The notes under the pieces are model-generated. The model was not told the DNA's origin. It made no database searches and worked only from the letters and a program-made list of their open reading frames with translations. The position numbers and the translations under genes were made by a program. A DNA stretch of 63,884 bases, filler included, from Collodictyon triciliatum (Eukaryota): NCBI GenBank assembly GCA_043381765.1. It is 31 parts of 31 records of this genome, joined end to end, with 100 filler letters (N's around TTAATTAATTAA, not from the genome) between each part and the next. Parts side by side here need not be neighbours in the genome. Positions count along the whole stretch, not along the records: positions 18,628 to 20,595 come from JBHJMP010009802.1; 30 more parts are not named here. The stretch is one strand, 5' to 3'. This document shows, piece by piece, positions 4,142-63,611 of the stretch (the stretch's first letter is position 1; every line of letters starts with the position of its first letter).

Positions 4142-5207
4142 GCATTAGAGAGCGGTGATTTGGAAGGACTTGCGGGGTTCGTGCTTGTCTCCAGCTCGCG
4201 GTGAGCGGGGTGTGGGTGATGCCCAGTGTTTCTCCCCACCGTTGATGTTTTGACTTTTTGTAGGGTGTCGGCGGCGATATTTTGTATCGAAAGAATTTGG
4301 AGTAGGCCATAGCCATCGAAAACTGCATAGACTGCGCACCGTTAAACGAGCTTTCGTTCTTGAGGCGGAAAAAGAATGGCGATGGGATGTCCTATGAGAT
4401 TGGTCTGCGTCAGCACCATTTTCCTTTGTTATTCAGGACGGCTGTGGTTGGCTGTGCATCTTGTGTGCGGAATGCGGTGGAGCCTGGCGTTGTGATGTAT
4501 GAGCCATCTTCTTTGAGTGAGATTTCTCTGGTGGTGGCCGCGTTGCCTTCATGAATCTGTTTGATGATGCAGAGGCCTTTCTAGTTATCCCAGCATATTT
4601 GTCCTGCTGCTAGTGGCTCGTTCAGGGGTATTGTCATATCGCAGTGAGTATACAGAATCTTCCAACGCGAGAGCAAAGGCTCGGGTGTGTTTGGAGGTGG
4701 TCGTGGGATTGTTATTTGTTGCAACTGTGTTTTGAAGTGTGCACACAGTTTGGTGATGAGTTTCTACATCCCAATTTGCCAAAACCCTTTCGGCTGCATG
4801 AACATGTCCGTCCACCACTTCATGGTCAGCGATATCCATGCAGTTTTGGGTGTGATGAGTCCAACGCCTCCCTCTGCGGGTGGCTTAATCAGTGTTTTGA
4901 TTTTGTATTGCTGTCTCTTTGTTGTGATCAAGGTGCGGCATATACTCTCCAGTGTGCCGAGATGCTTTTGTGGTAGGTGAGAGCCCTTCATGTTGTGGAT
5001 GAGGGTCGATAGCATGAGTTGGTTCCATAGCCTCGCTTTTCCGATATCTGAAAGATGGAATCTTTTCCAAGAGGCGATTATGGACTTGATATTGTTGACC
5101 AGCTTGTCACACTTTTCTGAGCAGCCGCTCCCAAACATTATACCCAGGTATCTGAGTGCGTGGTTTGGGTATTTCCAGTCGAATTTTGGTTCGGTAAATA
5201 TACAGCT
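4142..5207 (-). mobile_element. L1/Tx1-like non-LTR retrotransposon ORF2, C-terminal part, degenerate
   Basis: LRYLGI, WKRFHLSDIGKARL and PPAEGGVG motifs typical of the L1-clade RT C-terminus; stops and frameshifts downstream. Confidence 0.85.
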
Positions 5208-6211: not shown

Positions 6212-6383
6212 CAACAGCTGCAGCCGTCTTGAGTGTCAGTCGAAGAATCTCACCGGCTGTTTCGCGCAGGTTTTGAGCGAAGGGACATTGCACAAATGTG
6301 TGCTCAATGGGCTCATCACCGTTGCTGCAAAGTGTGCATTGTTGGGAGACTTTGCCAGCTTTTGCCGCGCGCGTGCCTATCTC
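6212..6383 (-). mobile_element. L1-like ORF2 C-terminal zinc-binding fragment, 5'-truncated
   Basis: CTLCSNGDEPIEHTFVQCPFA matches the CxxC...ExxxHxFxxC (zf-RVT) motif. Confidence 0.75.
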
Positions 6384-7980
6384 CAAAAAAAAATAAAAAA
6401 TAAATATACTTGACAAAGCAATTAATCCGATTATGAAAAACACAATTCAAGATGAACAAAAGTCAGAGTCATTGGTTCAAGAAACTTGATTGAAGAACAT
6501 GCCAAAACAAGGGCTGTCAGAGGGAGGTATCGCAAAAGAAAATTCATTTTGCTCTTGCTCAGTGCTGCTCTCTTTATTTTCTTTTTTTGATGAATTTGTG
6601 ACTTTGCATGGTAAGTTTACAAAGTTTTGTGGCCGAACTCGATGGGAATAGATACTGTGATGGAAGAAATAATGACAGAACAGCACAGTGGATAAATAAA
6701 ACCAAGCTTATAATAGAAAATGTAACGAAATATGCTGAATCGAATAATTATGAGTCTTCGAGGATATACATAATAGAGTCAGGACTTTCTGTTTTTACAT
6801 CCGTATACGTAATTCCATATTTTCCCACAGTAATAATATTAGCATAAGTAGAAAGGAATCATAGAAATAAACTGAAATAATTGGCTGAGTCGTTTTCATG
6901 CAGAACAGTGAGTGTCGACCGGATATTTTGTTATGCTTTCCTAATACCCAAATCTATGCTTTCTAATCGTTTTTTTATTTTTATTCTTTTTCTCTTTTAT
7001 TTTCTTTTCTCTTTTCTCTTTTTCTTCTTTTTCTATTTTTCCTCTTTCTCTTTTCTCTTTTCTCTTCTTCTTTTTTCTATTTTTCTCTTTTCTCTTTTCT
7101 CTTTCTTTTTTCTTTTTTCTTTTTTCTTTTTTTCTTTTTTTCTTTTTTTCTTTTTTTCTCTTTTTCTCTTTTTCTCTTTTTCTCTTTTTCTCTTTTTCTC
7201 TTTTTCTCTTTTTCTCTTTTTCTCTTTTTCTCTTTTTCTCTTTATTTTCTTTACTTTTTCTTTTCTTTACTTTTCTTTACTTTTTCTTTTCCTTTCTCGT
7301 CTTATAAAACCAAAGCAAACAAATATAAATGTCATATTCTGACTTTACATTCTTTTCCCTCCCTATTGTTTGTCGGATGCATCGACAGGCTCCTACATAC
7401 CGAGTTCTGTCGATTTACATATGCTCGTTATGTACTCTTGGAGGAACTATGAAAGAATTGCAGCCCCAGTTATCTATTCAGAAATTAAATATCAGTCCTT
7501 AATTGAATAGTAGCTTATCTAGAGATAATAAATGCAGCAACTGCAAGTCAGTACGAAATCTCGATTCATCAGATAGAAGCAAGGACAGCTTTGGCCGAAA
7601 AACGGAATTGGCTATTGAAGTGATTGTTGTTTATGTGATTGTCACCAACTAGTTCGATGCTTTATTTGAAATACTACCCGAAGAAATGATGATATGAAAG
7701 TTTTCTTATTAAGAATGAAAAAGTGAATTTTTCAACGTTCTCTATTTTCTCTGTTGACATCAAAAAGCTTTACGAAAAAGAAAAAAAAGAGATAGAACTT
7801 TGGGTAATTAGACTATTTTGTTGTGGTGGGTTTTCTGCTTGCATTTGAGTATGATTGCGTTTTCTTTTTATTTTATGGTAGCAAGAGCGAGAGAAAGATG
7901 AAGAGAGTACAGAGTGTGGAGATGAGAAAATCGAAAGAGGTGGAGTGAGAGAAAAGACAGGAGAACAAATGCAGGTCTAT

Positions 7981-12538: not shown

Positions 12539-14250
12539 TTTGCGCTTTTGGAGAAATTTAAGAATTGATAATAACTGTTTGCCATTAGATTTTGCGACGA
12601 GCTCAGTCCATATGTTAAATCGTTCGAACATGAGTCACAAACCACTTCATTGGTTATTTCAGAGAGTAGCTATCTATCACATCGACTCAAGTTTTACCTC
12701 TCAAAATTTCCGAAAAACATGTCCATCCTTATTCTGGTGGATGCCGCAGATATGTGTATGTTAAACCTGCATTCCATGCTAAAAGGGAGGAAAATAATAC
12801 CCTCATACGTCTAAAAGGTCTCCATGTTTCCCTGCTTATTACAGGTTTATCAGAATCAAATTTCCCTCAAAAAATTTTATTTAAATTTTCTTTAGTAATC
12901 AACCATCAGGGAAAGTTTGATATGAATTGGATCCCAGAATCTTGGATAAACCCCAAAATTAAAATTATTGTCACATGTCAAACATCCGTCGATTTGAAGG
13001 GGCATATTCAGAACTTGCAAACCCAACCAAATATATTGAATGTCTCTATGCTTAATACTGAAGAAAGGCTGTTGTTAATCAAGCAAAGTCTGATGAAATA
13101 CAATTACTCACTTTACCCAAGCATTCGCGAGAAAACAGAGGTTTGATTCATTCTACCTTTAAGCCTTTTTTTCTGTTGATTCTTTTATAGTTACCAAATG
13201 ATTTGAAAATCAAAGGACTTTATGCTACCGGGGTTCATCGAATATGAAGAAAGGAACTGGCTTCACTATATATCCTTCAAAAAAACTGGGAATCCACTGA
13301 CGTTGAAGGGGGTCGGTTTACAATTTTTTATGTTCTCATTTCTTTTTGAATATTATATTCATATATGGCCTTACTACGCAGGTTGTTGCATTAGTTCATA
13401 AAAAATGCAATGTTAGCGACCAGACCAGTATAGAGGTTGAGCTGGATAAGATTGGTAGAGAATACGACCGTTCGATATCTCGATATTTGGAACTGATATC
13501 ATCATTGTAAATACCAATTATCATAAATATTTGATATTCTTGAGGCATTTCGATTGTCATTAGGGTCATTCTTTTCTCTTCCATTCGATTAAATTCTTGG
13601 AAAAAATCATTTATTAGATATAACCAAAAAATGGTTAAAAATACGATAACTTATATACTATGCTCTCAAAATGGACTCTTAGAGCACGAACTGAGGTGCT
13701 GATTGTTTTTACTTGAATTCATTTCTCTGTATTTGTTTATATTCATTTTTTAATTTATTCATCCCATCGTGATTCAAATATCACCCTTAATTAATTGACA
13801 ATAAGCTCGACAAATTGGTTCACAACCATTTTTAATGGCACCATCATATACATTAGAGAATTATGTGGGAGCCATGAAGGATCGTTTTCTTCTTATGACT
13901 GGGCATTACTGATTAGTGTATGCTCTTTTTTTTTTAAAAAACAAACAAACAAACAAACAAACAAACAAACAAACAAACAAACAAACAAACAAATTATAAT
14001 TTTGCTGCGTATTTTTATTCCCACAAGTACTCTATTTGTTTCATGCAATTATGTGGAATCAAACAGTCCCAATAATCTAATTATCTTTCACCGATTGAAC
14101 ATTACCTGCATAATTTTATTTTATATGTTTATTTATTTACATTGTAAATTATAGGATATTGCCCAATACATATCACCTTGGATGCTCGAAGCAGAATTAG
14201 AGGGTGTTAGGATTACTAATGACAGAACCAAATCGTCCATAGCATATTAG
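12539..14250 (+). pseudogene. NACHT/STAND NTPase (TEP1/NWD-like) fragment, multi-exon, frameshifted
   Basis: Walker-B-like ILILVDAAD, WIP..KIKIIVT, TGNPLTL, ILCSQNGLLEHEL; frame breaks inside exons. Confidence 0.6.
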
Positions 14251-14492: not shown

Positions 14493-16411
14493 AATTCCAA
14501 ATTCGTATTGTTTTGTCGCTACCTCCTGATACGATTTTAGTTCTATCTGGGCTCAAACTAACGCTATTAACCGAACTTGTGTGACCTGAAACTGTCAAAA
14601 TCAAGCTGAAATCAGGAAAATTCCACATTTTAATATATGCATCATCACTTGCAGAGAGAAATTTTGTTCCATCTGACACAATTGAAAAACCATTAATTGT
14701 AGCAACATGTTCTGAAAAAATGTGAATTATCACTCCATTTGAATAATTCCATATTCTAATTGTATTATCGCTGCTTCCAGAAATAATTTTTGAAGTATCT
14801 GGAGAAATGACAACTGTTTTGACGATTCCAGTATGTCCGCTGAATGTTCTTATCAAATCTCCATCTGATATGCTAGTAAGTTTGATTGTTTTGTCGCTAC
14901 TTCCAGAGACGACTTTCGTTCCATCTTGCGTGATGGAAATGCAATTTACTGAATCTGTATGTACTTGAATATTCTGAACTACTGTTCCGTCGTTGATATT
15001 CCATACCTTAATTATTTTATCAGCACATCCTGACACAATTTTTGAGCCATCAGGGGTCAAAGCTACACTGTTAACTATTCCGGTATGTCCGCTGAATGTT
15101 CTTATCAAAGCTCCATCTGACATGCCGGTAATTTTGATTGTTTTATCGCTACTTCCAGAGACGATTTTCGTTCCATCTTGCGTGATAGAAATGCAATTTA
15201 CTGAATCTGTGTGCACTTGAATATTTTGAACTATTCTTCCATCATCAATACCCCACACTTTGATTGTCTTGTCCACACTTCCGGAGACAATTTTTGAACT
15301 GTCAGAACTCAATATCACTGCCTGTACACCATCTGCATGCCCAGTTAATGAGCGAACTAAATCTCCATTATTCAAGTTCCAGATTCTTATGATATTGTCT
15401 GAGTGCCCAGATATGAAAATTGATCTCGATTGAGATGCGGTTATACATAAAAATGGAGAGCCTGCTAATGAATTTATAAGGTTTCCGTTTGATAAATCCC
15501 ATAACTTAACCGTCCAATCTGCACTTCCTGATGCTATCTTCAAGCCGTCAGGAGTTACAATTACTCCCAATACGTAGTTTGTATGACCCGTCACAGTGCA
15601 GATCAAAGATCCATCGAAGAGATTCCAGATTTTTATTGTTTTATCATCACTACCTGATATGATTCTTGCGCTATCTGGTGTTAAAACTACAGAACAGACA
15701 AACCCTAAATGACCTTTCAATGTGCGAATCAAAGCTCCATCAGAAAGATTCCAAATTTTGACTGTTTTATCATTACTTCCAGAAACAATTTTTGTACCAT
15801 CTGAAGAAACAGCAACACTGCGAACAGCACTAGTATGACCAGTCAATATGCGAATCAAAGCTCCATCTGAAAGATTCCATATTCTTATAGTCCAATCCCA
15901 ACTACCAGAAATAATTTTTGAACTATCAGGAGTAACAGCAACACCGCGAACAGCACCAGTATGACCAGTCAATGTGCGAATCAAAGCTCCATCTGAAAGA
16001 TTCCAGACATTTATTGTGGTATCATGGCTCCCAGAAATAATTTTTGAGCCATCAGGAGTAACAGCAACACTGCAAACAACACTAGTATGACCAGTCAATG
16101 TGCGAATCAAAGCTCCATCAGAAAGATTCCAAATTTTTATTGTGGTATCAGCGCTTCCCGACAAAACCCTCGTCCCATCAAAAGTGACAGAAACACTCCA
16201 AATCTCATTAGTATGACCAAGTAATGTACTAATCAATTTTCCATCAGAGATATTCCATATTTTGATACTTCTGTCCACACTAACACTTACAGTCTTTGAA
16301 CCATCAGGAGTAACAGCAACACCACGAACCCATTGACTATGTCCTATTCCAACAGTATAGACAGAAGTAACTTGGCCATGGCAAGAAAAAAATTGACCCA
16401 AAAAAAGGACT
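14493..16411 (-). CDS. WD40-repeat protein exon (~15 repeats, double propeller), both ends incomplete
   Basis: About 640 open codons of GH...SV.++PDG.KI+SGS.D.TI+IW repeats. Confidence 0.95.
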
Positions 16412-16619
16412 CCTATAAAATCATTTTAGCCAATAAAACCAAATTTCAGCAGAAAAAAANNNNNNNNNNNNNNNNNNNNNNNNNNNNNNNNNNNNNNNNN
16501 NNNTTAATTAATTAANNNNNNNNNNNNNNNNNNNNNNNNNNNNNNNNNNNNNNNNNNNNGACAAACAAGTTTGAATAAAGATATCCTGATATATTAAATA
16601 AGAAATAGATGCCACTCTA

Positions 16620-17900: not shown

Positions 17901-18527
17901 TTTTTTTACTCTAAAAGTCTTAGCTGTTGAGCCCGTCCCAACAATCTTTCAATCAACCATCAGGCAAGTAGTTCCAAAGTAGGTGGTGATGTGTGGGAGA
18001 TAGAAAAAGAAAAACAGGGATAAAGATAAAAGAAAAAAGGGAAAAGAGAGGTCCTTGGGGCTTGATAAGAGACACATGGATTTCTTTTGGGGACGCGTGA
18101 TAGTGTCCCGCGAGCATGAGAAAAGGGACAGGTGATATTGATTGGATGGAGGAGGGGGAATGCTGCTTTGATGGCGCAAGGTGTCGAAAAGGATGGTGAA
18201 AAGAAAAGTGAGGTTCGTTTGATAAGCACTAGGTCGAGTGTAAAGAGAATTCTCTGCATGGTTGACTCACTTCCTTCCAGACCGTATTAGGGTCTTTTCA
18301 GTAGGGGTTGTCGAAGGGATTTCTCCCTCTTGCTTGCAAACCCTATGGCTATAAGCTTCCACTCCCTGGTGTCTCTCTCAACCAAGGTCGGGAGTTTTGG
18401 CTTTGATACCGCAGGTCTTGCAAGTGGATTTGGTCAGCTATTCAGGACTCACGTGTCATGAGGTGTTAGCTGCCTGCAGTCTCCCGGCTCAGGGAGTCTG
18501 TTAATGGGTTCGTTTGGGGTAGGGTAT
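17901..18527 (-). mobile_element. Interspersed repeat family C (retroposon-like 3' end), copy 1
   Basis: Near-identical to 53487-53601 and 53702-54027 on other contigs; ends in a hairpin plus A-rich tail. Confidence 0.85.
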
Positions 18528-19188
18528 NNNNNNNNNNNNNNNNNNNNNNNNNNNNNNNNNNNNNNNNNNNNTTAATTAATTAANNNNNNNNNNNNNNNNN
18601 NNNNNNNNNNNNNNNNNNNNNNNNNNNAAAAAACAAAAAACAAAAAACAAAAAACAAAAAACAAAAAACAAAAAACAAAAAACAAAAAACAAAAAACAAA
18701 AAACAAAAAACAAAAAAAACAAAAAAAACAAAAAAAACACAAAAAATAAAAAATAAAAAAAAAGAAACATGAAAACAAAAAACAAAAAAACAAAGACAAT
18801 AATAAGATAAAGGAAAAACAACAAAATCGAAAAAAACACGACCAAGTTCTCAAACGAACTTCTCACAGTCATTGAAGAAGTCCTATGTTTCTAATCAAAT
18901 GCTCGGAATGGACCGTATGAGTGTCCATCGCGTGCTTTACAGCGAAATATTGGCATGATGTCCGAAGAGTCTTTTATTATACGCCATTTTTTTGACAGGA
19001 TTTTTTATTTTAAAATTGATGTCAATTAGAAAAATAAATGCCACGGCTATCGTAAGGACACCTTATCTGACAAACAAATCAAACCCTTACAAACAAGATA
19101 ATTTCATCCAACTATTGCCTTATTTTTTCATTTGACTTTCAGGTTCTGTTTTAAAAATAAAATAATATCGTTTAAGTTCCAAAACTTT

Positions 19189-19265
19189 ATCCATTGCAAT
19201 AACGTTCCCTCGGTCCTGCACAAAGTTGAAAGGAAGAATAAAAAAAATCCATTGCAATAACGTTC
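19189..19265 (+). mobile_element. Micro-insertion family B (39 bp) with a 19-bp perfect TSD
   Basis: ATCCATTGCAATAACGTTC at 19189-19207 and 19247-19265 flanks CCTCGGTCCTGCACAAAGTTGAAAGGAAGAATAAAAAAA. Confidence 0.85.
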
Positions 19266-20014
19266 ATTTAATTTATGATGCGATTTAGCAAGTTGTTTAT
19301 AATAAACTAGCCCCTGATATACGATGTGTGATTATTCTGCGAATCTCATTAAACTAATCAGAAACTCTTTGAAATGTTGTAAACTTGTGGTTTGCAGGCC
19401 TGAAGATACTGTGCTTCACCAAGCAGGATGTAGTACCTCCATCAAGATATTTAGAAGATGACCCAGTTTGACCGACTGACGCAATTTTTTTTTTTTTATC
19501 GATGAGTATTGCTGCAGAGCAAAACCTAGAACTCCACAATTGCTTTTTATCTGTGTTTTTTTAATGCAAAATTAATGCGAGCATCGCTATTTTCTCACAA
19601 AATGTATATTCCGCAAGCACTTGACTTGGTTCTGCACTGATTAATATGTCCACAAACTCGCTTGTATTTGGTTGTGAAATAACTCTGTTACACTTAATCC
19701 GTTTTCTTGTGAAAATGGACTGTCAGTGTGGTCCTCGGCTGATTTCGTTTGGAGACCACCTATTGAGAATTGAATCCCCTCCACTTTCATAACATTTTGC
19801 ATTTGCTCAGACTGCACGATGATATGCGTGTTCTGCTCCAGTTTGACATAGACACAAGGCTGTTGATGTTCCGCAGATTAGTTTTGAATATGATGAAGAG
19901 CGCATAAATCAGATTTCAAACAACCCATACTTTGTACACACACTCAGCGTGGTTGGTCTTCCTATAATACGAGTAGAAAGGGCCAAATCCGATGTCATCA
20001 ACGCAATGATGTTT

Positions 20015-20074
20015 TATCTCTCCTCTAATATCTTTGAATCGAATAAAGGAAAAAAATATCTCTCCTCTAATATC
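20015..20074 (+). mobile_element. Micro-insertion family A (24 bp) with an 18-bp perfect TSD
   Basis: TATCTCTCCTCTAATATC at 20015-20032 and 20057-20074 flanks TTTGAATCGAATAAAGGAAAAAAA. Confidence 0.85.
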
Positions 20075-20894
20075 GCAGGCTACTTTTTTTTTTTATCGCT
20101 ACCAAATGATTATAAAATCCAGCTGTCTGGTGGTGTAGGAGGAGGAGTGAGACGCTCTTCCTTTTCTTTTTTTCTTTTGTATTTTTTTTCAAAATGAACA
20201 AATAAATATTTGGTTTGAATGAAAGAAAAGAAGCAAATGCTTTGGAGTCGCCGCGTCACTTTTATTTTTGCACCCATCCTCACTCGGGCTGCCCTTCCAG
20301 TGCCATCATTTTTTACAATTCGAATTCCACTGAATAACTACTGACTAATACCTCCAATATCCTCCCCACATAATCAGCCACAGTGAATAAAATGTCTTTT
20401 TTTTTCATTTTCACTTCATTCTCACTATTTTTTTTTTAATTCCAATTACATTATTTTCTTTTTCTTTTGCTTTAATTCCATTTTTTTAATTGGTTATCAT
20501 TCATTCACTCACTCACTCACTCACTCACTCACTCACTCACTCACTCACTCACTCACTCACTCACTCACTCACTCACTCACTCACTCACTCACTCANNNNN
20601 NNNNNNNNNNNNNNNNNNNNNNNNNNNNNNNNNNNNNNNTTAATTAATTAANNNNNNNNNNNNNNNNNNNNNNNNNNNNNNNNNNNNNNNNNNNNTCATC
20701 ATACGGGTAAAACAAGATATATGATGTTCATAAAAAAAAAAAAAAGAATCCCCAAGCGCGGCTGTGAAAGACAAAATCTGGTAATGGTCAACGAATATAG
20801 CAGTTTTCTGTCCTGGAAACGACTCTTTCTGATTACGAAAAAAATAAGGACATCGCCAAACTAAGCTACTCTCCAGAATTCGTTGTTTATTATT

Positions 20895-20983
20895 AATTAC
20901 TATCATGTTTTTTTTTTTATTCTTCCTTTCAATTTTGTGCGGGATGGTGGAGATGTTGGCCTTGGTTCAATTACTATCATGTT
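20895..20983 (-). mobile_element. Micro-insertion family B (59 bp) with a 15-bp perfect TSD
   Basis: AATTACTATCATGTT at 20895-20909 and 20969-20983; the minus-strand insert ends CCCGCACAAAATTGAAAGGAAGAATAAAAAAAAA. Confidence 0.85.
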
Positions 20984-39410: not shown

Positions 39411-40298
39411 AGTCCTTGAAGATGAAACAACCCTCGGAGAAAATGACGAGGAGTTATCTGAGCAACCTAGTGAAGCAGCGTCCCAAACCACGCCGATGTC
39501 TCCTCCGAAATCACAGAATTGGTTTCGCCGGCTCTTCCAAAGAGAAACTGACAGTAGTGATGAAAGCGGAGCCGCACCAACAAGACCTGCCAAGGATATG
39601 GACTACATAGTGCAGGTCACATAGTTTACAAGCAATCCAGTAGCTTTTTTTCAACATGGATGGCGATTGCTTTATTACACATGAATGCATTATATTTATT
39701 TAATCCATCGACTTTGAATCGAATAAAGGATTTTTTTTTTATTGAATCCATCAAAATTACTGCCTTCTCTCTTATTTCCCTTCTCTGGGTCAAACATAAC
39801 CAAGTTATTTTCATCTATATCTTCAGTTCTCTCACTGACAAGGTACAATAATCTTTATCTGTCGACGATAGTTGGAACTAAGAATCCAACAAGCTCAAAT
39901 TGAGCAAGAAAGGATGGACGCAGAGTTATTGCAAGAGTACAACCTTTTCCACGAAAAGAAAGTTGACGACTTTAAAAAGATGCTAGACATTTACAGCAAG
40001 TGTCAGGCTAGTCACCATCGAGATGTAAGTTGCTTGAGGCTGAAAAATTTCTGCATATTCGAATAGATTGCCAGCGTAAAACATTTTGTAAACATATGCA
40101 CAGGCATTTCACATCTTTTGCACGCTTTCTTCAAGCTGCACACTAGACACTTGCCATGATTATCTTAATATCACATACTATTCACTAAATGAGGCGACAA
40201 AATCTCACGATATCACATTCTATCGTCTGGTTGAATAGGCTATGGAAGCATGGACTAAACTGCCGGCTGTTCTTGATAGAGTCAAAAAAATAGGCTAG
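39411..40298 (+). CDS. Sorting nexin BAR-domain C-terminus (Vps5/SNX-BAR-like), last three exons
   Basis: LELRIQQAQIEQERMDAELLQEYNLFHEKKVDDFKKMLDIYSKCQASHHRD|AMEAW. Confidence 0.7.
39695..39752 (+). mobile_element. Micro-insertion family A in an intron, 15-bp TSD with one mismatch, T-rich tail
   Basis: TTTATTTAATCCATC / TTTATTGAATCCATC flank GACTTTGAATCGAATAAAGGATTTTTTT. Confidence 0.7.
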
Positions 40299-41150: not shown

Positions 41151-41597
41151 CCTGCACTGTGTACTGCTTACGAAAACAAAAAAACAAAAAAACAAAAAAA
41201 CAAAAAAAACAAAAAAACAAAAAAACAAAAAAACAAAAANNNNNNNNNNNNNNNNNNNNNNNNNNNNNNNNNNNNNNNNNNNNTTAATTAATTAANNNNN
41301 NNNNNNNNNNNNNNNNNNNNNNNNNNNNNNNNNNNNNNNTGTTTGTTTGTTTGTTTGTTTGTTTGTTTGTTTGTTTGTTTGTTTGTTTGTTTGTTTGTTT
41401 GTTTGTTTGTTTGTTTGTTTGTTTGTTTGTTTGTTTGATTGATTGTTTGATTCGTTTAGTGAGTAGATTTATTGATCTGATTTATGGTAAAGGCATAGAT
41501 GACGAGAAAAGGGAACAAATTGTCTTTAAAAAGTAAAAGTAGAAAAGAAAGGTTTGTGATGCTCCTTGGGGTTTAGATGGGATGGTCTGTTTCCTTG

Positions 41598-46043: not shown

Positions 46044-47422
46044 GCTGTCCTCGAATGAGTAAACCATCACCTAGGAAAAATCGAGCTCAAGGCGAAGAAC
46101 ATCCGCGATGACTTTATGGACGGGTTCTTTTTGGCCATGCTGATTGAGGTGGTCACCCGATAGTCCTTGGAAAGCTACCATTCCCGCTTGTTTGCGTATG
46201 ACTTATTTATGATGTTCAAATATTGTTTTTTTCATGGATTGTTATTTAATACCTTTGTATATCAGTGACAAAGCTATTGAGGAGGAGGCTCTTGTTGACG
46301 AGAATTAAAAACTCATCGTTGATTGGTTTCTGAAATGGAATGTGCGTTATGAGGCTGTTGCTTCTCAGGCCCATTAGGCTGGTTTACTTTATTTGATTTA
46401 AAGGGAAATGTTTTTTGAACTTTTCACATATCATCCATTTATTTTGTATGAGTGACGTATAAATATTCTTACAGATATTCCCTACGAAATGCTCCAGTAT
46501 CTAATTAGACAAAGTGTTGGCCATTTGGAAGCATTGACGTAACAATACTTTTTTTTATTCTTTATTTTCCCTATTTTGAAACATGTCAAAATTTAATCTC
46601 TCAATGTTAAGAATTGTAGGAAAACTGTCGTGAGAGGTGCGATATCACTGCCAAGAAGCTTTACGAAAGAGCGAAGACCCCGTTTCCGTTCCATGGTTGA
46701 TATTTGATTTATTTTTTTAATTTTTATTTGATTTTATTGTTTTATATTTGTTTCTCAACTAAATTAAATTTAAACATTGATGCAGGTCTTAGTCTGGAAG
46801 AAAAAGGGTATGTTGTGCTCATCCACACTTGTATTCTTCTTGACAAGGTAATTAGTTAAAATTGAATAAAATATATCAAAATCATTGTGTTTTATAAAAA
46901 ATAATGTCGATTACAAACCAGATGAAGCTTGCTCGTGAAGACCTGAAGGAGAGGCAATACAAGAACTGGAATCCAGCTCCACAAAGATACGTGACACCTA
47001 CACCACCGGTACTCATTGTTTTTGAGGAGCGCGTCATCTGTGTTTTCCTTTCGTCGACTTTCCGTGAAATGCAGCAAGAAAGAGACGAGTTCCTCAATAA
47101 TGGAGCCTCTGAGTAAGTAAAACCCATTTATATAATAAATTCATGATAAGGAATGATAATTTGATGCTTTTATTTTTCTTACAATATAATTTTTATGCCA
47201 TGTTGAAAAGGCTTGCAAGAGCATTGGAACTGGACCCTGTCTTTATCGACTTGCGCTGGGGTCTGACTTCTGTGGACAGTAGTGAGGAATGGGTAATCAC
47301 AATATTAAAAATATATATTTGACAGTTTTTAGAATATTTAGCATTTTATAAAATAATAACCTTCAATTTTCTCTTATTTTTTCAAAGTTTGTGGTTTGCT
47401 GCCTGGACTCCATCGGAAAATG
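46044..47422 (+). pseudogene. Calponin-homology-like plus DUF4062 (TEP1/NWD N-terminal) multi-exon pseudogene
   Basis: LE*VNHHL..DDFMDGFFLAMLIEVV, LVDEN*KLI (CH); VFLSSTFREMQQERDE and FIDLRWG (DUF4062); stops at 46056, 46161, 46306. Confidence 0.7.
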
Positions 47423-50400
47423 NNNNNNNNNNNNNNNNNNNNNNNNNNNNNNNNNNNNNNNNNNNNTTAATTAATTAANNNNNNNNNNNNNNNNNNNNNN
47501 NNNNNNNNNNNNNNNNNNNNNNAAAGACAAAATAAACAAAATAAACATAAAAAAACAAGAGAGAAAAAGACAGAGGTATAAAACGAAAAAAAAGCAGATA
47601 AAAGGAATAAACAAACAACAGAAAGGCCGCGGGAATGAAGCCATACATGCGAGGTCCTATGCCACGCAGATATGGCTTCTAACGATTCTGCTGGAGGCTT
47701 AGCCGGCCATTAGTAATTGAGTGAATCAGACTATTAAAATTTGATGAATCAGACCATAGTGCATTATCCATCGTGCCATTTGAAAGTGTTATTAGGCAAA
47801 ATATATTATTTTCCAGATATTGATCACTAAATGCGATTTGAATTCTGCTTAATGTGTAATTCTGGAAAATTCCTTTTTTCCGTTTTGTCTGTGGTGCTGA
47901 ACCAACAAAACCAGCCGCACCCAAAAACCCACCCGCGTTGATATTCTCATTTCTCTTATAGGAAAGAAAAAAAAAGGGAAAAGATCTTGGCGTGGCTGTG
48001 TGATGCGGTGCCCATGTTGGAATAATGATTGGCGCTTCCATTAAAATATGGAAAGTGGGTTCAAAAGTGACAAAAGGTTGACCGTAGCCGATTTTTTTTT
48101 ATATATATAGACAACAGATAATGAAGGAGGGAGAATTAAGACCTATCTACACGAACAAGCATAGGCAGAGATACAACAGATGTTACACGTGGGGCTCATA
48201 CTACAGGGCTGAATGCGAAGCAAGCGTATTTCTGGATTATACATAGAGTCGCCTTTGCTGCCATTGCCCCTTACTCGGCATTAAACTCTTCAACGAAAGA
48301 AGAAAACAGCCAGCGATTCATCGTCTTCTCCAGCCCCAGAATATCTCCAAGGTTCAGTTCGTCCAGAACACTGTGCTGAACGCATAGCTGGGTGGATTGC
48401 TTCCATAGGTCTAGTCCTTTTTTCCATTCACTCTGGGCACGGGCCAACATCTTCACTCGATTTAGAGTATTATATTCGACCGAAACAGAGCGGCTATGGG
48501 TTTGCATAGGAGCGATTTGGCTCGAGAGCGCCGAAGTGCCGTTGGCTTTGAAAAAAATAATATGCGCGGCTTACTTTCTGACCTTATAAGAGTGGGATAG
48601 AAAGTAGGCTGGGCATGATAGTAAAAGAATATGGGATGCAGGTATTTAAGCCTCGAAAATAAACAGACCGATGTTTGCCGGTGGTGTTGCAGACGAGCGT
48701 GATTGTGGAGTCGAGTTGGCTGTGGATGAGTCAGCTTTATGTTCTGTTGCTGACGTGCTTTCTAGCAAGACTTCAACCTCCTTAAGTACTTTTTGAGAGG
48801 AGTCGGATAAACAAAAGATAGGTCCAGTACAACAGATCGCTTTACACCTGAGACTAGGGAAAGTTTGAATCAGCTTCATCGTTCATGGTCGAAAAAAGAG
48901 AAGAAAAAGAAGAAAAAGAAGAAAAAGAAGAAAAAGAAGAAAAAGAAGAAAAANNNNNNNNNNNNNNNNNNNNNNNNNNNNNNNNNNNNNNNNNNNNNNN
49001 NNNNNNNNNNNNNNNNAAAGAAGAAAGAAACAAAAGAAACATAAAAGCAAAAAGAAACAAAAAGAAAAAGAAAAGAAACAAAAGAAACATAAAAACAAGT
49101 CTAACTCCTTCCTTTTCCCTCCGGTTCACGCATGTTAGTGTGAAAATAACGCAGCAAAAATAAGAGAAAACTCTTACAAACCAAATCTAAGAAATTATAA
49201 TTTCATGAAAAAAATAAACAAATATCTCATTTCTTCATAAACCATATTTCCTGAGGAGCAAGCAGTTGGACCAACTTCGGTGCTTGTGATTCCTTCAGAT
49301 AAGATGCTACACTTCACCACTTTGATTGTATTACTCAAGTATGAAATCAACAACAAGAAGAAGAAGAAAGAAAAAGAAAAGAAAAAGAAAAAGAAAAGAA
49401 GAAAAAGAAAAGAAGAAAAAGAAAAGAAGAAAAAGAAAAGAAGAAAAAGAAAAGAAGAAAAAGAAAAGAAGAAAAAGAAAAGAAANNNNNNNNNNNNNNN
49501 NNNNNNNNNNNNNNNNNNNNNNNNNNNNNTTAATTAATTAANNNNNNNNNNNNNNNNNNNNNNNNNNNNNNNNNNNNNNNNNNNNTTTTTTTTTTTTGTG
49601 GTTCTGAATCTTTTCTTCCCCTTTTTTTTTTTTTTTTTTTTTTAATGAATCGTCGAAGATAGAAACCCAGATGCTTTCCATAATCCGCACCGCTACCGTT
49701 TATCTTTTTTTTTTTTTACATATATATTTTATTCTATCTTTCAATCTTGTACAAGGCGGTGGGAATGTTGGCTTTGGTTAACTAGCTATCATTTGCATGG
49801 ACACTGCTAATGTATATCAGAGATACAAAAACTAATCAACATCTTCTTATGCTTTGTAGATGCCCGAAAGATATTCAGCTGATGTCTATTTTATCATCCA
49901 AGTAATGTCCAGTATAATACTGGCATGATGCATGATGTGTTACCATTTGGAAAAAACATCTTTATAGTCTAATGCCTATTGGAATGATTAGATTTCTGCT
50001 GGACCATGAAGGGCAAGCCATCAACAAGAATTGGGATACATATCCCTTGAGTGACCCCCAACTAAAATATGGTTTATATTTTATTTCATTAAAGTCGCAC
50101 ACACATACATACACGCATGCACACAAGAAAAAAAAAGTTTTATCATTTGCTCATCAAAAAAAAAAAAAAAAAAAAAAAAAAGAAACATGTGGAGATAAAA
50201 ACTATTTATCCCTTGTTTTTTTTTATTTGTTATTTTTACATATCTAATATTATAATGAGTGGTTAATCAACGCATAGTCACGTTGCGAGTGATAATGAAC
50301 CACGGCAATAATAATAATAATAATAATTTTATACTTTATCGTGCTGGCAATTTTAAAATAAGAAAACAAACAGCTTCTTCATCGTGCTTTGCCTCGCTCG

Positions 50401-53486: not shown

Positions 53487-53601
53487 TTTTATTCTAAAAA
53501 TCTTAGCTGTTGAGCCCGTCTCAACAATCTTTCATTCAACCATCAGGCAAGTAGTTCCAAAGTAGGTGGTGATGTGTGGGAGATAGAAAAGAAAAACAGG
53601 G
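53487..53601 (-). mobile_element. Repeat family C, copy 2 (3' end)
   Basis: Near-identical to 17904-18019. Confidence 0.85.
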
Positions 53602-53701: not shown

Positions 53702-54027
53702 CAAACGAACCTCACTTCTCTTTTCACCATCCTTTTCGACAGCTTGCGCCATCAAAGCAGTATTCCCCCACCTCCATCCAATCAATATCACCCGTCCCTT
53801 TTTTTTTCTCATACTCGCGGGACACTATCATGCGTCCCCAAAAGAAATCCATGCGTCTCATATCAAGCCTCAAGGACATCTCTTTTCCCTTTTTTTCCTT
53901 TTATCTTTATCCCTTTTTTCTTTTTTACTATCTCCCTTACATCACCGCCTACTTTGGAACTACTGCATGATGGTTGAATGAAAGATTGTTGAGACGGGCT
54001 CAACAGCTAAGACTTTTAGAATAAAAA
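53702..54027 (+). mobile_element. Repeat family C, copy 3
   Basis: Reverse complement of ~17904-18221 with few differences; ends ...CTTTTAGAATAAAAA. Confidence 0.85.
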
Positions 54028-54555
54028 GAGGTTTGTAGATTTGAATATCGCTTACCAGCATAATTAAGTACAATAACATGATTTCCAGCTTTAGATGAAG
54101 CTTATTTGGAATTGTTTCAATTACGCACTTTTGTCTCATTTTTCAATGAAATGCACCAAAGTGGAGAAGACGCTTTTTTTTTATAAAAAAATAACTCAGT
54201 TCATCCAAATTTTTTCGTTTTGTAACACCAACTCGCTTCAGCGCGCAAGAATCTATAGACAACCCCCGGACCCTCGCGCATTTATCAACGAATCAGCCCG
54301 GCCTCGCGGAAACAGGCCTCCAGGCGACGGGCTTGACCCAACACACCTAAACCCCGGGTTGGTTACTGTGACTTCCATCTTATACTAAATAACTAATTAT
54401 TTTTTTTTTGCTTTATTCGATAAATAGAAAAGTCTGTACTTTTCTACAGCCCGATGTAGTGGTCGCACCTTGGCTGGTGGTACGGATTTGTACTGGGTTT
54501 GGGTTAGGGTCAGCTCGGTATGGAAGCTGAATCTATGACTCGTCACTATTCGCTC

Positions 54556-54653
54556 GTGAGGGAAGGATAGTTTTTTCCCCCTTTATTCGAGTGAGAGAAG
54601 GATAATTAATATTCTGACACTTTGAATCGAATAAAGGAAAAAAAATATTCTGA
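54556..54653. mobile_element. Two adjacent family A micro-insertions in opposite orientations
   Basis: 54571-54590 (minus, TCGAATAAAGGGGGAAAAAA) between GTGAGGGAAGGATAG/GTGAGAGAAGGATAA; 54618-54643 (plus) between two AATATTCTGA. Confidence 0.8.
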
Positions 54654-59771: not shown

Positions 59772-60534
59772 GNNNNNNNNNNNNNNNNNNNNNNNNNNNN
59801 NNNNNNNNNNNNNNNNTTAATTAATTAANNNNNNNNNNNNNNNNNNNNNNNNNNNNNNNNNNNNNNNNNNNNTTTGTTTATTTTAACAACACCGCCGTGT
59901 AGCGTTGCGCCACAGAAAAGACTTGGCGAGCGGATTATTTTGATGAGGACTTTTGTGGCTTAAGGTCACATACTAAATTTACGATATGTTATGTTTGCTA
60001 TTAGATTAGGACACACGCGCGTGGCGTTTTGGGGGTAAAACTACTTAAGTTACATGAGTATATAAATGTGTGATAATTATCATATTTTTATCATATTTTA
60101 CTATAATTAATGGCATAGAAACATATATAGAACGTATGATTATAATTTCCACAAGTATTTCACAAAAATAGATTTTTGTGGTCATAGCCTAATCCACCAA
60201 TCAAAATGCGACACAACGCCCGCCCTGGATTTATAGGCTCTCTTGTGACGGGCGTGTGCCGCTCTATAAAACGGCCAACAATTCCGCTGGCAATTGCACC
60301 GCACGTCGGTTTCGGGCGGCAAAGATTAAAGGCGAACAAAGATATGTCAAAAGTGTGAGAGGTACAAAACTGCAAAGAATGCCAAAAAAGCAGAAGACAA
60401 ATGGTTCTTTTTTTCCCTTCCTTTATTCGATTCAGGATGAAGACACAAAATACTTAGAAACACCAATATCCTCTTCTTACGCATTTTCACTTAATACCAG
60501 CCATTCTAAAGGACAAGATAGATATCCTCGTAGA

Positions 60535-61386: not shown

Positions 61387-62097
61387 AGCATTCGCTGGCA
61401 CCACTACAGCACAGAATAAACCCATCCAAAGACATTTCACACGGACATCCTTTCAAGCGACGATTCGTTATGCGGCCTACATACCTTCTTTCCAGATTAT
61501 CTTACCCCCAACAGCCAAAGTAATTTTATTTGTCATTTCCGCATTTGAAAAACATATTTGGTATGATTAAATTTGAACTGTTACTTGCGCAGCGCGGTTT
61601 TTTTGAGGCGATCCAGAAGCACGCGCTTTTCTCTTCCCTTTCGTCCATCTATACCCTTTCCCCTCACCCTTTTTCTTCAACGGAGCATCGGGATCTGGAG
61701 AGATACGGCCTATTATTCGAACTTTAATAACTTCCCCATAGAAATGCTTAAAAAGTATAGCAGATATAAAAACAAAAAAACAAAAAAACAAAAAAACAAA
61801 AAAAACAAAAAAAACAAAAAAACAAAAAANNNNNNNNNNNNNNNNNNNNNNNNNNNNNNNNNNNNNNNNNNNNTTAATTAATTAANNNNNNNNNNNNNNN
61901 NNNNNNNNNNNNNNNNNNNNNNNNNNNNNATAATGATAATGATAATGATAATGATAATGATAATGATAATGATAATGATAATGATAATGATAATGATAAT
62001 GATAATGATAATGATAATGATAATGATAATGATAATGATAATGATAATGATAATGACAATGACAATGACAATGATAACAAAACTAGAAGGAGCATAC

Positions 62098-63611
62098 ATT
62101 TAAAAAGTGTTATAAACGTTAGTGCTTGAAGGCTGACTTCTGGGAATTTGGAATGGAGGAGTACTCTAACAATATGCAAACCCTCTGCTTCCTCCAACTT
62201 TAAAAGTGCATCAGCTGTCGTAAAGAGAACAAATAAGCACATAAATGTTGATATAAAAAACACTCAGTTTTATCTAAAGGCATATATGTTCTACTTTATT
62301 CATACAGGTCCGAAATAGGGATATAGAATGTTTGAGTTCGCTAAACAATACCATTTGATATTATATTAAATAGTGTGGATGCGATATTCAATTGAATCAT
62401 TTGGTCCTGAGAAGTACAAAGGTAGTATGTTGGTTGTAGTCCTCCATTCTTTGTAAAGTAAGTCAATGACAGTGGCTTCACTACGATTATTGGTTAAGGT
62501 TGTGACGTGATGAAAGTATTTATGATTAGAAGGAAGAGGAGGAATTGAAAAAGACCAAAAAAATAACATTTCGAAATATAAAGCTGAGCAGGTTTTTACA
62601 CAAATACACCAGGAATATACTAACATCAGAGTAATATAAATGTATTAAAAACGTATCTAGTAAATTTAATAAAATAAATTTATTATGTTATGAAAAATAC
62701 ATTTTTCTGTTAAATTCCTCAGCCCAAGACTTGTGTATTGCTGTATTTCCTTGTCCATGGAATATGCAAAACAAACAAGACATTGCAATCCACCCTCATT
62801 TATGATGTGTTGTTTTAATTCAGCTATTTTGATTTAAAAAATGTATAAATGGACCACCATTAAATCTCCCGATGCAATAAAAAAAGAAAATTGCAGGTTT
62901 TTTATTTTCCCTTTTATTCGATTCAAAGTTGAATGAATACAAGCGTAAATATGTCTTCTTTTCCTCTTCTTTTTTTTTTCACCATAAATATTCGAGTCAT
63001 TAATATGCATAAAGTTAACCTTCGTCTATAGCGCATAAACTAGATAATGCTCTTGCCGCATCTCTTTGAATTTGAACATCAGAAGACCTTGTCATTCCAA
63101 TTATCAATTGAAGATGTTCGTGTATGGCTACTTCACAATTTTCGACTAAAAATAGTGATATGAAATAAAATAAAATTATCTTAGATTATGATATTACAGC
63201 CGCATCATACATCAGAATCGTTATTTCTAAGATAGGAATATTAATAAATAAAAGCATTTTTTTCAAGGTCGGAATGGGCCTCACTTTCTTCTACTAGGTT
63301 AGCGAACGTAGCAATTATGATGCGCTGTATTTTTTGACTTTTTGACGAACTGAGCTTCCTAAAACATCGAAGCACTCCTGAGGAAACCATCCCTACTCTG
63401 TTTTTACCTGTAAAGAAAATTGATCATGTCAGAGTGGAACATAAATTGGCCTTTAACTTGTGGCTCCTTTGTGAATCAAATATGCTAAAATATGTGCGAT
63501 GAATGTTACGGTTCTTGGCCATATTTTCAAAAGTTTCACAGATGAGAAGGGTAACAAGCCCATCATGGATATCGCATAGCTTGGTCAACGTATCGATAAT
63601 ACCCATCAACC
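62098..63611 (-). CDS. Armadillo-repeat protein, internal exons
   Basis: NRVGMVSSGVLRCF..., SSDVQIQRDAARALSSL, GGLQCLV...DKEIQQYTSLGLRNL, GLHIVRVLLHS. Confidence 0.7.

Follow-up and report, generated by a model that had tools for sequence, protein, structure and literature searches.

The interval 20015..20074 of the DNA analysed here holds, on the plus strand, a 24-nt insert (20033-20056) enclosed by two identical copies of the 18-bp sequence TATCTCTCCTCTAATATC (20015-20032 and 20057-20074), and it raises the question of how so short a sequence, made up of 17–18 nt that correspond to the tail of a LINE (see below) and of A7, came to lie there. The earlier note on this DNA had offered two answers, namely an extremely 5′-truncated retroposon inserted by target-primed reverse transcription (TPRT) of the L1 type, or a tiny RNA that is itself mobilized. 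In the following, this insert and its relatives are called family A and the insert itself copy A1.

The window, i.e., the whole stretch of DNA that was analysed (63,884 bases), is composed of 31 scaffolds of about 1.96 kb each, ordered by length, and represents several loci, not one. The scaffold joints have the form N44-TTAATTAATTAA-N44 and the window contains 33 N-free pieces with 60,567 bases. Simple repeats, mostly A/T-rich microsatellites, are found at 33 of the 66 piece ends, indicating a fragmented short-read assembly that was broken at repeats. These terminal microsatellites are often of the type (A)nC or (A)nG (e.g., 1-104, 18628-18790, 41173-41239, and 61769-61829). A-rich simple repeats abound in this genome and might have originated as the tails of retroposons. 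The DNA is eukaryotic, with long open frames for WD40, LRR, ankyrin, kinase and GTPase domains and a non-coding GC content of about 32%; the kinase ORF shares at most 46% identity with any protein relative, and the DUF2045 ORF 82% with a EukProt transcriptome protein. ARAGORN found no tRNA genes in the window and there were no Rfam matches at the gathering threshold. We also observed an interspersed repeat of about 330 bp, to which no type was assigned (17903-18221, 53702-54027, and 53487-53601; 91–96% identity, two copies at scaffold ends), and a WD40 protein exceeding 640 aa in length (14494-16425, minus strand) whose 126-bp units are 73–78% identical in DNA, which suggests a recent expansion or concerted evolution of these repeats.

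The family A motif, ACTTTGAATCGAATAAAGG followed by an A-rich tail and with AATAAA 2 nt upstream of the tail, is strongly over-represented in the window. The core plus tail had been claimed for at least five independent contigs; allowing up to three substitutions, the 19-mer core occurred six times, in six different scaffolds. The shorter string TGAATCGAATAAAG gave 12 matches with up to two mismatches, compared to a mean of 1.48 in 100 shuffles, none of which reached 12, and TCGAATAAAGG gave 9 matches with up to one mismatch, compared to 1.61 expected, a value again reached by none of 100 shuffles. Altogether, eight copies of the family are clear and one, at 46383-46403, is decayed, while two more, at 1008-1041 and about 55850, are doubtful. 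The nine copies counted hereafter (the clear ones and the decayed one) are distributed over 7 of the 33 pieces, which corresponds to about one per 6.7 kb.

Besides A1, three clear copies are bracketed by locus-specific direct repeats. Copy A3 (39695..39752, plus strand) has a 15-bp duplication with one mismatch (39695-39709 and 39738-39752) around a 28-nt insert (39710-39737), which consists of an extra G, a 19-nt tail, an A and a T-run replacing the A-run. Copy A4 (54608..54653, plus strand) shows a perfect 10-bp duplication, AATATTCTGA (54608-54617 and 54644-54653), around a 26-nt insert (54618-54643) keeping 20–21 nt. Copy A7 (54556..54604, minus strand) carries a 14-bp duplication with one mismatch, or 17 bp with two (54556-54569 and 54591-54604), and in its 21-nt insert (54570-54590) only TCGAATAAAGG is kept, followed by G3, A6 and C. 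The repeats at A1, A3 and A4 confirmed the coordinates and the lengths of 18, 15 and 10 bp given earlier, and the repeat at 54556, then described as 15 bp with two mismatches, is replaced by the scoring above.

The remaining copies are without a duplication. Copy A2 (37899..37924, plus strand) has a variant core (G to A), of which 18 nt are kept, and a short A-tail; A5 (62901..62929, minus strand) keeps 19 nt with one substitution and ends in the tail GGAAAATAAAAAA; A6 (60408..60434, minus strand) keeps 15 nt (TGAATCGAATAAAGG) with the tail AAGGGAAAAAAAG and no clear duplication; and A8 (54400..54424, minus strand) has about 12 nt of tail (ATCGAATAAAGC) and A10. The decayed copy A10 (46383..46403, minus strand; CTTTAAATCAAATAAAGTAAA) has no duplication either. 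The flanks at 37900, 60408, 62901 and 54400 gave repeat scores of 3.5, 5.5, 2 and 3.5, respectively, none above noise, in agreement with the previous description of the first three of these places as lacking a clear duplication. The copies A4, A7 and A8 lie no more than 250 bp apart (54400-54653), and two of them adjoin each other in opposite orientation, so that their duplications abut. The probability of finding three of nine copies so close by chance is about 0.004, and the interval is a possible integration hot spot.

Duplications of 10–18 bp are hence present at four of the eight clear copies, with flank-repeat scores of 18, 11.5, 10.5 and 10. As a control we scored virtual inserts of comparable size, 3000 of them in sequence shuffled by blocks and another 3000 in the window as it is, applying a low-complexity filter. 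A score of at least 10 was found at 0.07% of the shuffled sites and at 0.6% of the sites in the real window, and a score of at least 13 at none of the 3000 sites of either kind; when the filter was omitted, the rates rose to 4–6%, inflated by microsatellites. At these rates, chance does not account for the observed duplications, so that the comparison with shuffled sequence proposed beforehand spoke for real target-site duplications. Their length varies from locus to locus (18, 15, 14 and 10 bp in family A; 19 and 15 bp in a second family, family B, described below), and each follows a T or an A and lies in AT-rich surroundings. The A-rich tail immediately precedes the 3′ duplicate in three of the four family A cases and in both family B cases, A3 having its T-run at this place. 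At the 5′ junctions we found 0–1 nt of microhomology (A1 and A4) or one extra G (A3). No terminal inverted repeats were found at the family A inserts, and the duplications are not of fixed length.

A further prediction of the insertion model is an allele without the insert. We aligned contigs (Logan) of four metagenome runs, here X1 to X4, to the region 18800-20590, large parts of which remained without cover; the runs with parts of the scaffold 18628-20595 are all labelled as freshwater or lake metagenomes (shares 0.05–0.14). Record 18 of X4 (151 nt, depth 6.3) matches 19902-20019 with 4 other letters in 118, then jumps from 20019 to 20065 and continues with 28 nt that reach into the unique flank on the right, so that it is without the insert and without one copy of the duplication. 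Both ends of the joint fall inside the duplications (the left at 20019, the right at 20065), as the duplication model predicts. The joint skips 45 nt compared to the 42 expected, the extra 3 nt corresponding to one CTC unit of the CT-rich duplication, and the empty-site haplotype is about 3% diverged from the window. The filled form was found in record 7 of X2 (19955-20105, no differences) and in records 3 and 4 of X1. Record 11 of X3 and record 19 of X4 gave short partial matches over the A1 insert. In addition, the T-rich stretch 20154-20190 showed a very high summed contig depth (558 in X4 and 71 in X3), which is probably due to low-complexity cross-matching. The insertion at 20033-20056 is therefore present in some wild freshwater lineages and absent in another, the absence being read from one contig, whose shorter side measures 28 nt and whose kind of joint can, in metagenomes, also arise from repeats. 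The search for empty sites that had been proposed was in this way answered by one contig, and the polymorphism of A1 among wild freshwater populations points to recent activity.

The exact 18-mer of the motif occurs at 35 loci of the metagenome collection, and only one of these, L008, has an A-run after and an A before it. The other 34 matches are due to chance, in contigs that are unrelated and for the most part look like coding sequence, and chance also accounts for the matches in genome contigs (20 of 20 bacterial) and in viral contigs (3 of 3). L008 is a 1157-nt contig in which ...CTACACTTTGAATCGAATAAAGG is followed by A10 and then by AT-rich flanking sequence, and upstream of the motif it turns into a GC-richer coding region. 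A 202-aa frame of this region contains the pattern C-x2-C-x9-H-x4-C and matches the Pfam family zf-RVT (“zinc-binding in reverse transcriptase”) with an E-value of 1.5e-7 and 32.4 bits, above the cut-off of 27.5; after a frameshift the ORF proceeds in a 133-aa frame, whose stop lies about 93 nt before the motif and A-run. Thus, the same 21 bases and A10 as in family A close the 3′ UTR of L008, and A4, which reaches 1–2 nt past ACTTTG, matches L008 there too. No duplication was found around the motif in L008, which carries at least 1030 nt of the element.

A word search detected no longer homologues of the L008 ORF, and an exhaustive HMMER search with it returned 14 relatives. Seven of them are fragments with 59–98% identity, and four are full-length proteins of 1226–1275 aa (P0129-P0132), in whose alignment the L008 frame falls close to the C-terminal end (residues 974-1123 of 1226 in P0129). 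All four full-length relatives have an Exo_endo_phos domain at the N-terminus and RVT_1 in the middle, and three of them a sub-threshold zf-RVT; judging by its domains, this architecture is that of the ORF2 of APE-type, L1-like LINEs. By tblastn with the metagenome relatives we found two fragments of such an ORF2 in the window, which Pfam had missed, both on the minus strand and both running off a scaffold start. The first (4143..5195) covers the region after the reverse transcriptase and is 63% identical to P0123 over 189 aa (E 4e-73); it also matches residues 730-1067 of P0129 (E 3e-22) and L008 (71% nucleotide identity over 320 nt). The second (6213..6386) covers the zinc-knuckle region, with 62% identity to P0127 over 58 aa (E 3e-18) and 78% nucleotide identity to L008 over 51 nt. 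Pfam detected no reverse transcriptase at E 1e-4 or better in 42 further ORFs of the window. The related ORF2 fragments show that this genome hosts the LINE group of L008, though not demonstrably the subfamily of L008 itself. The link between family A and a LINE runs through one 1157-nt metagenome contig, perhaps of another species, whose ORF2 DNA is 71–78% identical to the fragments in the window. The LINE ending in the motif that was to be looked for was thus found in part: L008 supplies the 3′ end of ORF2 and the terminus of the 3′ UTR, but not the reverse transcriptase region, and the window itself contains no 3′ end of a LINE.

The copies are insertions that in four cases carry duplications and in one case have an empty allele, and they are identical to the terminus of a LINE 3′ UTR. 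Taken together with the A-rich tails, these results bear out the proposal of L1-type TPRT with extreme 5′ truncation, and we consider it highly probable that the family A copies are dead-on-arrival, extremely 5′-truncated tails of an L1-like LINE, and not a mobile element themselves. The parent, as part of the same reading, would be a LINE with an endonuclease, a reverse transcriptase and a C-terminal zinc knuckle, living in this freshwater eukaryote. The absence of a duplication from four of the eight clear copies and the T-run in the place of the A-tail in A3 weigh against this explanation, as do the dependence of the LINE link and of the empty allele on one contig each and the lack, in the window, of copies of intermediate length and of a LINE 3′ end.

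We infer the order of the TPRT steps and the cause of the early stop as follows. The LINE endonuclease would nick AT-rich DNA with a stagger of 10–19 bp, and the poly(A) tail of the LINE RNA would be reverse-transcribed using the freed 3′ end as a primer. After 11–21 nt of the 3′ UTR (...CTACACTTTGAATCGAATAAAGG) the cDNA would be abandoned, or its template lost, and the stub would be joined to the other side of the break through 0–1 nt of microhomology or with one extra base. Filling in the stagger would then generate the target-site duplication.

The second family, found by self-comparison of the window, points to the same kind of event. Family B has the sequence TCC[T/C]GCACAAA[G/A]TTGAAAGGAAGAATAAAAAAAA at two places and ends in ...GCACAAAGTTGAAAGGAAGAATAAAAAAAA. 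One copy (19208-19246, or 19189-19265 with the duplications; plus strand) is a 39-nt insert with a perfect 19-bp duplication, and the other (20910-20968, or 20895-20983 with the duplications; minus strand) a 59-nt insert with a perfect 15-bp duplication, the two stubs keeping about 31 and 50 nt, respectively. A diverged, longer copy lies at about 49727-49800 on the minus strand. In three of the four metagenome runs (X1, X2, and X4) contigs match only 34 nt of family B; their loose 5′ ends have a common sequence, which is also present in the 59-nt copy, and in X4 the depth over family B is about 100, compared to about 6 nearby. The shared 5′ extensions indicate that family B, too, derives from the 3′ terminus of a longer element with many copies, truncated at different points. 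There are hints, to be taken as a lead only, that families A and B may be the tails of related LINE subfamilies.

Some further similarities were noted. When positions 100-215 of L008 (minus strand) were compared with the family B copies of the window, the last 30-odd bases of families A and B could be aligned loosely, with the common pattern GCACA..TTGAA..GAA..AATAAA. A 32-nt A-tailed similarity, GATTTT..AATCATTTGGTA.C.ATAAAA, occurs at 20084-20119 and at 13180-13211, both on the minus strand, with 84% identity; one of its copies is separated from the A1 duplication by 9 nt, with the two tails facing each other, and no duplication was found for this similarity. This similarity may represent a third stub family. 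A scan of the window anchored on A-runs yielded no A-tailed, duplication-flanked short inserts other than families A and B.

The property of family A that remains to be explained is its shortness, which the earlier note had already stressed. In an alignment on L008, the part of the 3′ UTR end kept in the nine copies measures 20–21, 19, 19, 18, 18, 17–18, 15, 12 and 11 nt, so that none retains more than 21 nt, none matches L008 upstream of its retained tail, and intermediate copies, from 22 nt to about 1 kb, were not seen in the window. The 5′ ends accordingly lie at −11, −12, −15, −18, −18, −18 (or −17), −19, −19 and −20 (or −21), a variation from −11 to −21 as truncation predicts. Fitting a constant-hazard (geometric) model with a hazard of 0.15 per nt, the probability that six of nine 5′ ends fall within −17 to −21 is about 0.26, and the probability that no copy exceeds 21 nt about 0.19. 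The same hazard predicts 0.04 for a copy of 31 nt and about 1e-70 for the 1030 nt or more of L008. A constant hazard thus fails beyond the first few dozen bases, so that truncation is at least two-phase: reverse transcription often fails very early and in some cases proceeds to long copies. Young copies of great length are lost from the interior of scaffolds through assembly bias, but this bias cannot account for the missing copies of 22–100 nt, given that scaffolds contain internal repeats of 59 and 328 bp. A structural block of reverse transcription, which had been suspected, found no support in the last 161 nt of the L008 element, whose fold (z −0.23) is no more stable than that of shuffled sequences.

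It is tempting to go one step further and to propose that the commonest integration outcome of this LINE is an 11–21-nt “micro-retrocopy,” present about once per 7 kb, clustered in hot spots and recording a discrete early failure of TPRT. We advance this only tentatively, giving it clearly less credit than the general reading as truncated LINE tails. The discrete point of failure, distinct from random truncation, could be the transition from initiation to elongation, or it could reflect a template that has been trimmed to the footprint of a bound protein.

A different reading of the same shortness is that the template itself was a discrete tiny RNA of about 19–21 nt plus poly(A), mobilized in trans by the LINE, for which a preferred 5′ end is expected. 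Such an RNA could have been processed or sliced from the 3′ part of the LINE transcript and be shielded by the reverse transcriptase or by a poly(A)-binding protein. It would account for six of the nine starts falling within −17 to −21 and for the lack of copies above 21 nt in scaffolds that could have displayed copies of 22–100 nt, and it fits the two-phase truncation implied by the existence of long copies; moreover, for the short retropseudogenes of human it has been proposed that the template is trimmed ahead of reverse transcription or in its course (PMC2831318). The 5′ ends, however, span 11 positions, neither their cluster nor the upper limit of 21 nt is significant under the geometric model, the family B stubs keep about 31 and 50 nt, and Rfam recognized nothing in the window. 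The claim of a tiny mobilized RNA with a defined 5′ end therefore fared poorly, and we regard it as unlikely.

It is more improbable still that the motif terminates some abundant mRNA of the host, in which case the copies would be processed pseudogenes of very small size, generated in trans, and the position of the motif next to ORF2 in L008 a coincidence. AATAAA 2 nt before the tail would suit an mRNA, and short human mRNA-derived retrocopies with duplications of about 15 bp are known (PMC2831318). In L008, however, the motif stands about 93 nt past the end of ORF2 and is not surrounded by a duplication, and at a density of about one copy per 6.7 kb we estimate a chance of about 1–2% for a landing within 100 nt of the ORF2 end; the agreement of A4 with L008 over a further 1–2 nt also argues against coincidence. 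Lastly, filler DNA at double-strand breaks, DNA transposon footprints or an assembly or adapter artefact would suit very short inserts, of which four of the eight clear ones lack a duplication, but these origins can practically be dismissed given the variable duplications (10–18 bp) without terminal inverted repeats, the A-tail that always adjoins the 3′ copy of the duplication, and the filled allele in two independent runs and the empty one in a third, which rule out an artefact of this one assembly.

Understood as truncated LINE tails, these inserts show that duplications and A-tails read by eye recover retrotransposition events far below the size handled by repeat finders. Each stub marks a break made by a LINE and then repaired and, since the stubs are frequent, this genome would be mutated by LINEs far more than its recognizable LINE content suggests. 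If their shortness reflects a specific early failure of the reverse transcriptase, the stubs offer a useful natural system for the study of that step; otherwise they belong to ordinary LINE biology. Should micro-retrocopies really be the commonest outcome, they would provide a natural, genome-wide read-out of abortive TPRT, and a major class of LINE-caused mutations would escape standard repeat annotation.

Among known systems, a footprint of a DNA transposon or a MITE was rejected in view of duplications of 10–18 bp and the lack of inverted termini. SINEs with LINE-derived tails, such as Platy-1, resemble family A in being short, A-tailed, flanked by duplications and dependent on a LINE, and Platy-1, with about 100 bp, is called the shortest primate SINE (PMC4864456). 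A SINE, however, has a head that derives from tRNA, 7SL or 5S RNA and bears an internal Pol III promoter, and it spreads from source copies, whereas the family A stubs are headless and not transcribable as units; with inserts of 21–28 nt including the tail, no tRNA genes, no Rfam matches and 5′ ends that are not fixed, we rejected this class as well. Closer in kind are the short mRNA retropseudogenes of the human genome, which Terai et al. (2009; PMC2831318) found by a poly-A tract and by duplications peaking at about 15 bp. According to that study, an uncapped, trimmed template would be lost to degradation while it is being reverse-transcribed, and microhomology would then serve to join the short cDNA thus exposed; there, “short” means up to 300 bp, and the novel set has a median of 356 bp. 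The signature is the same as in family A, which differs in keeping 11–21 nt and in deriving from the LINE's own RNA (in cis). In the open-access literature we found no description of LINE stubs of about 20 nt, which is weak evidence of their absence from it.

The best match is with the truncated copies of L1-clade LINEs, which have, like family A, an A-rich tail, locus-specific duplications of 10–19 bp and a variable truncation point, and whose 5′ junction shows either 0–1 nt of microhomology or a single additional base. The putative parent likewise resembles L1-clade LINEs in the C-terminal zinc knuckle of its ORF2 and in relatives with Exo_endo_phos and RVT_1. Truncated L1 copies typically still measure hundreds of bases to kilobases, and unlike them family A keeps only 11–21 nt in nine of nine cases, at about one per 6.7 kb. 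The kind of insertion, a dead-on-arrival, 5′-truncated LINE copy, is thus already known, and what is unusual in this genome is the shortness of the copies, their density and their local clustering.
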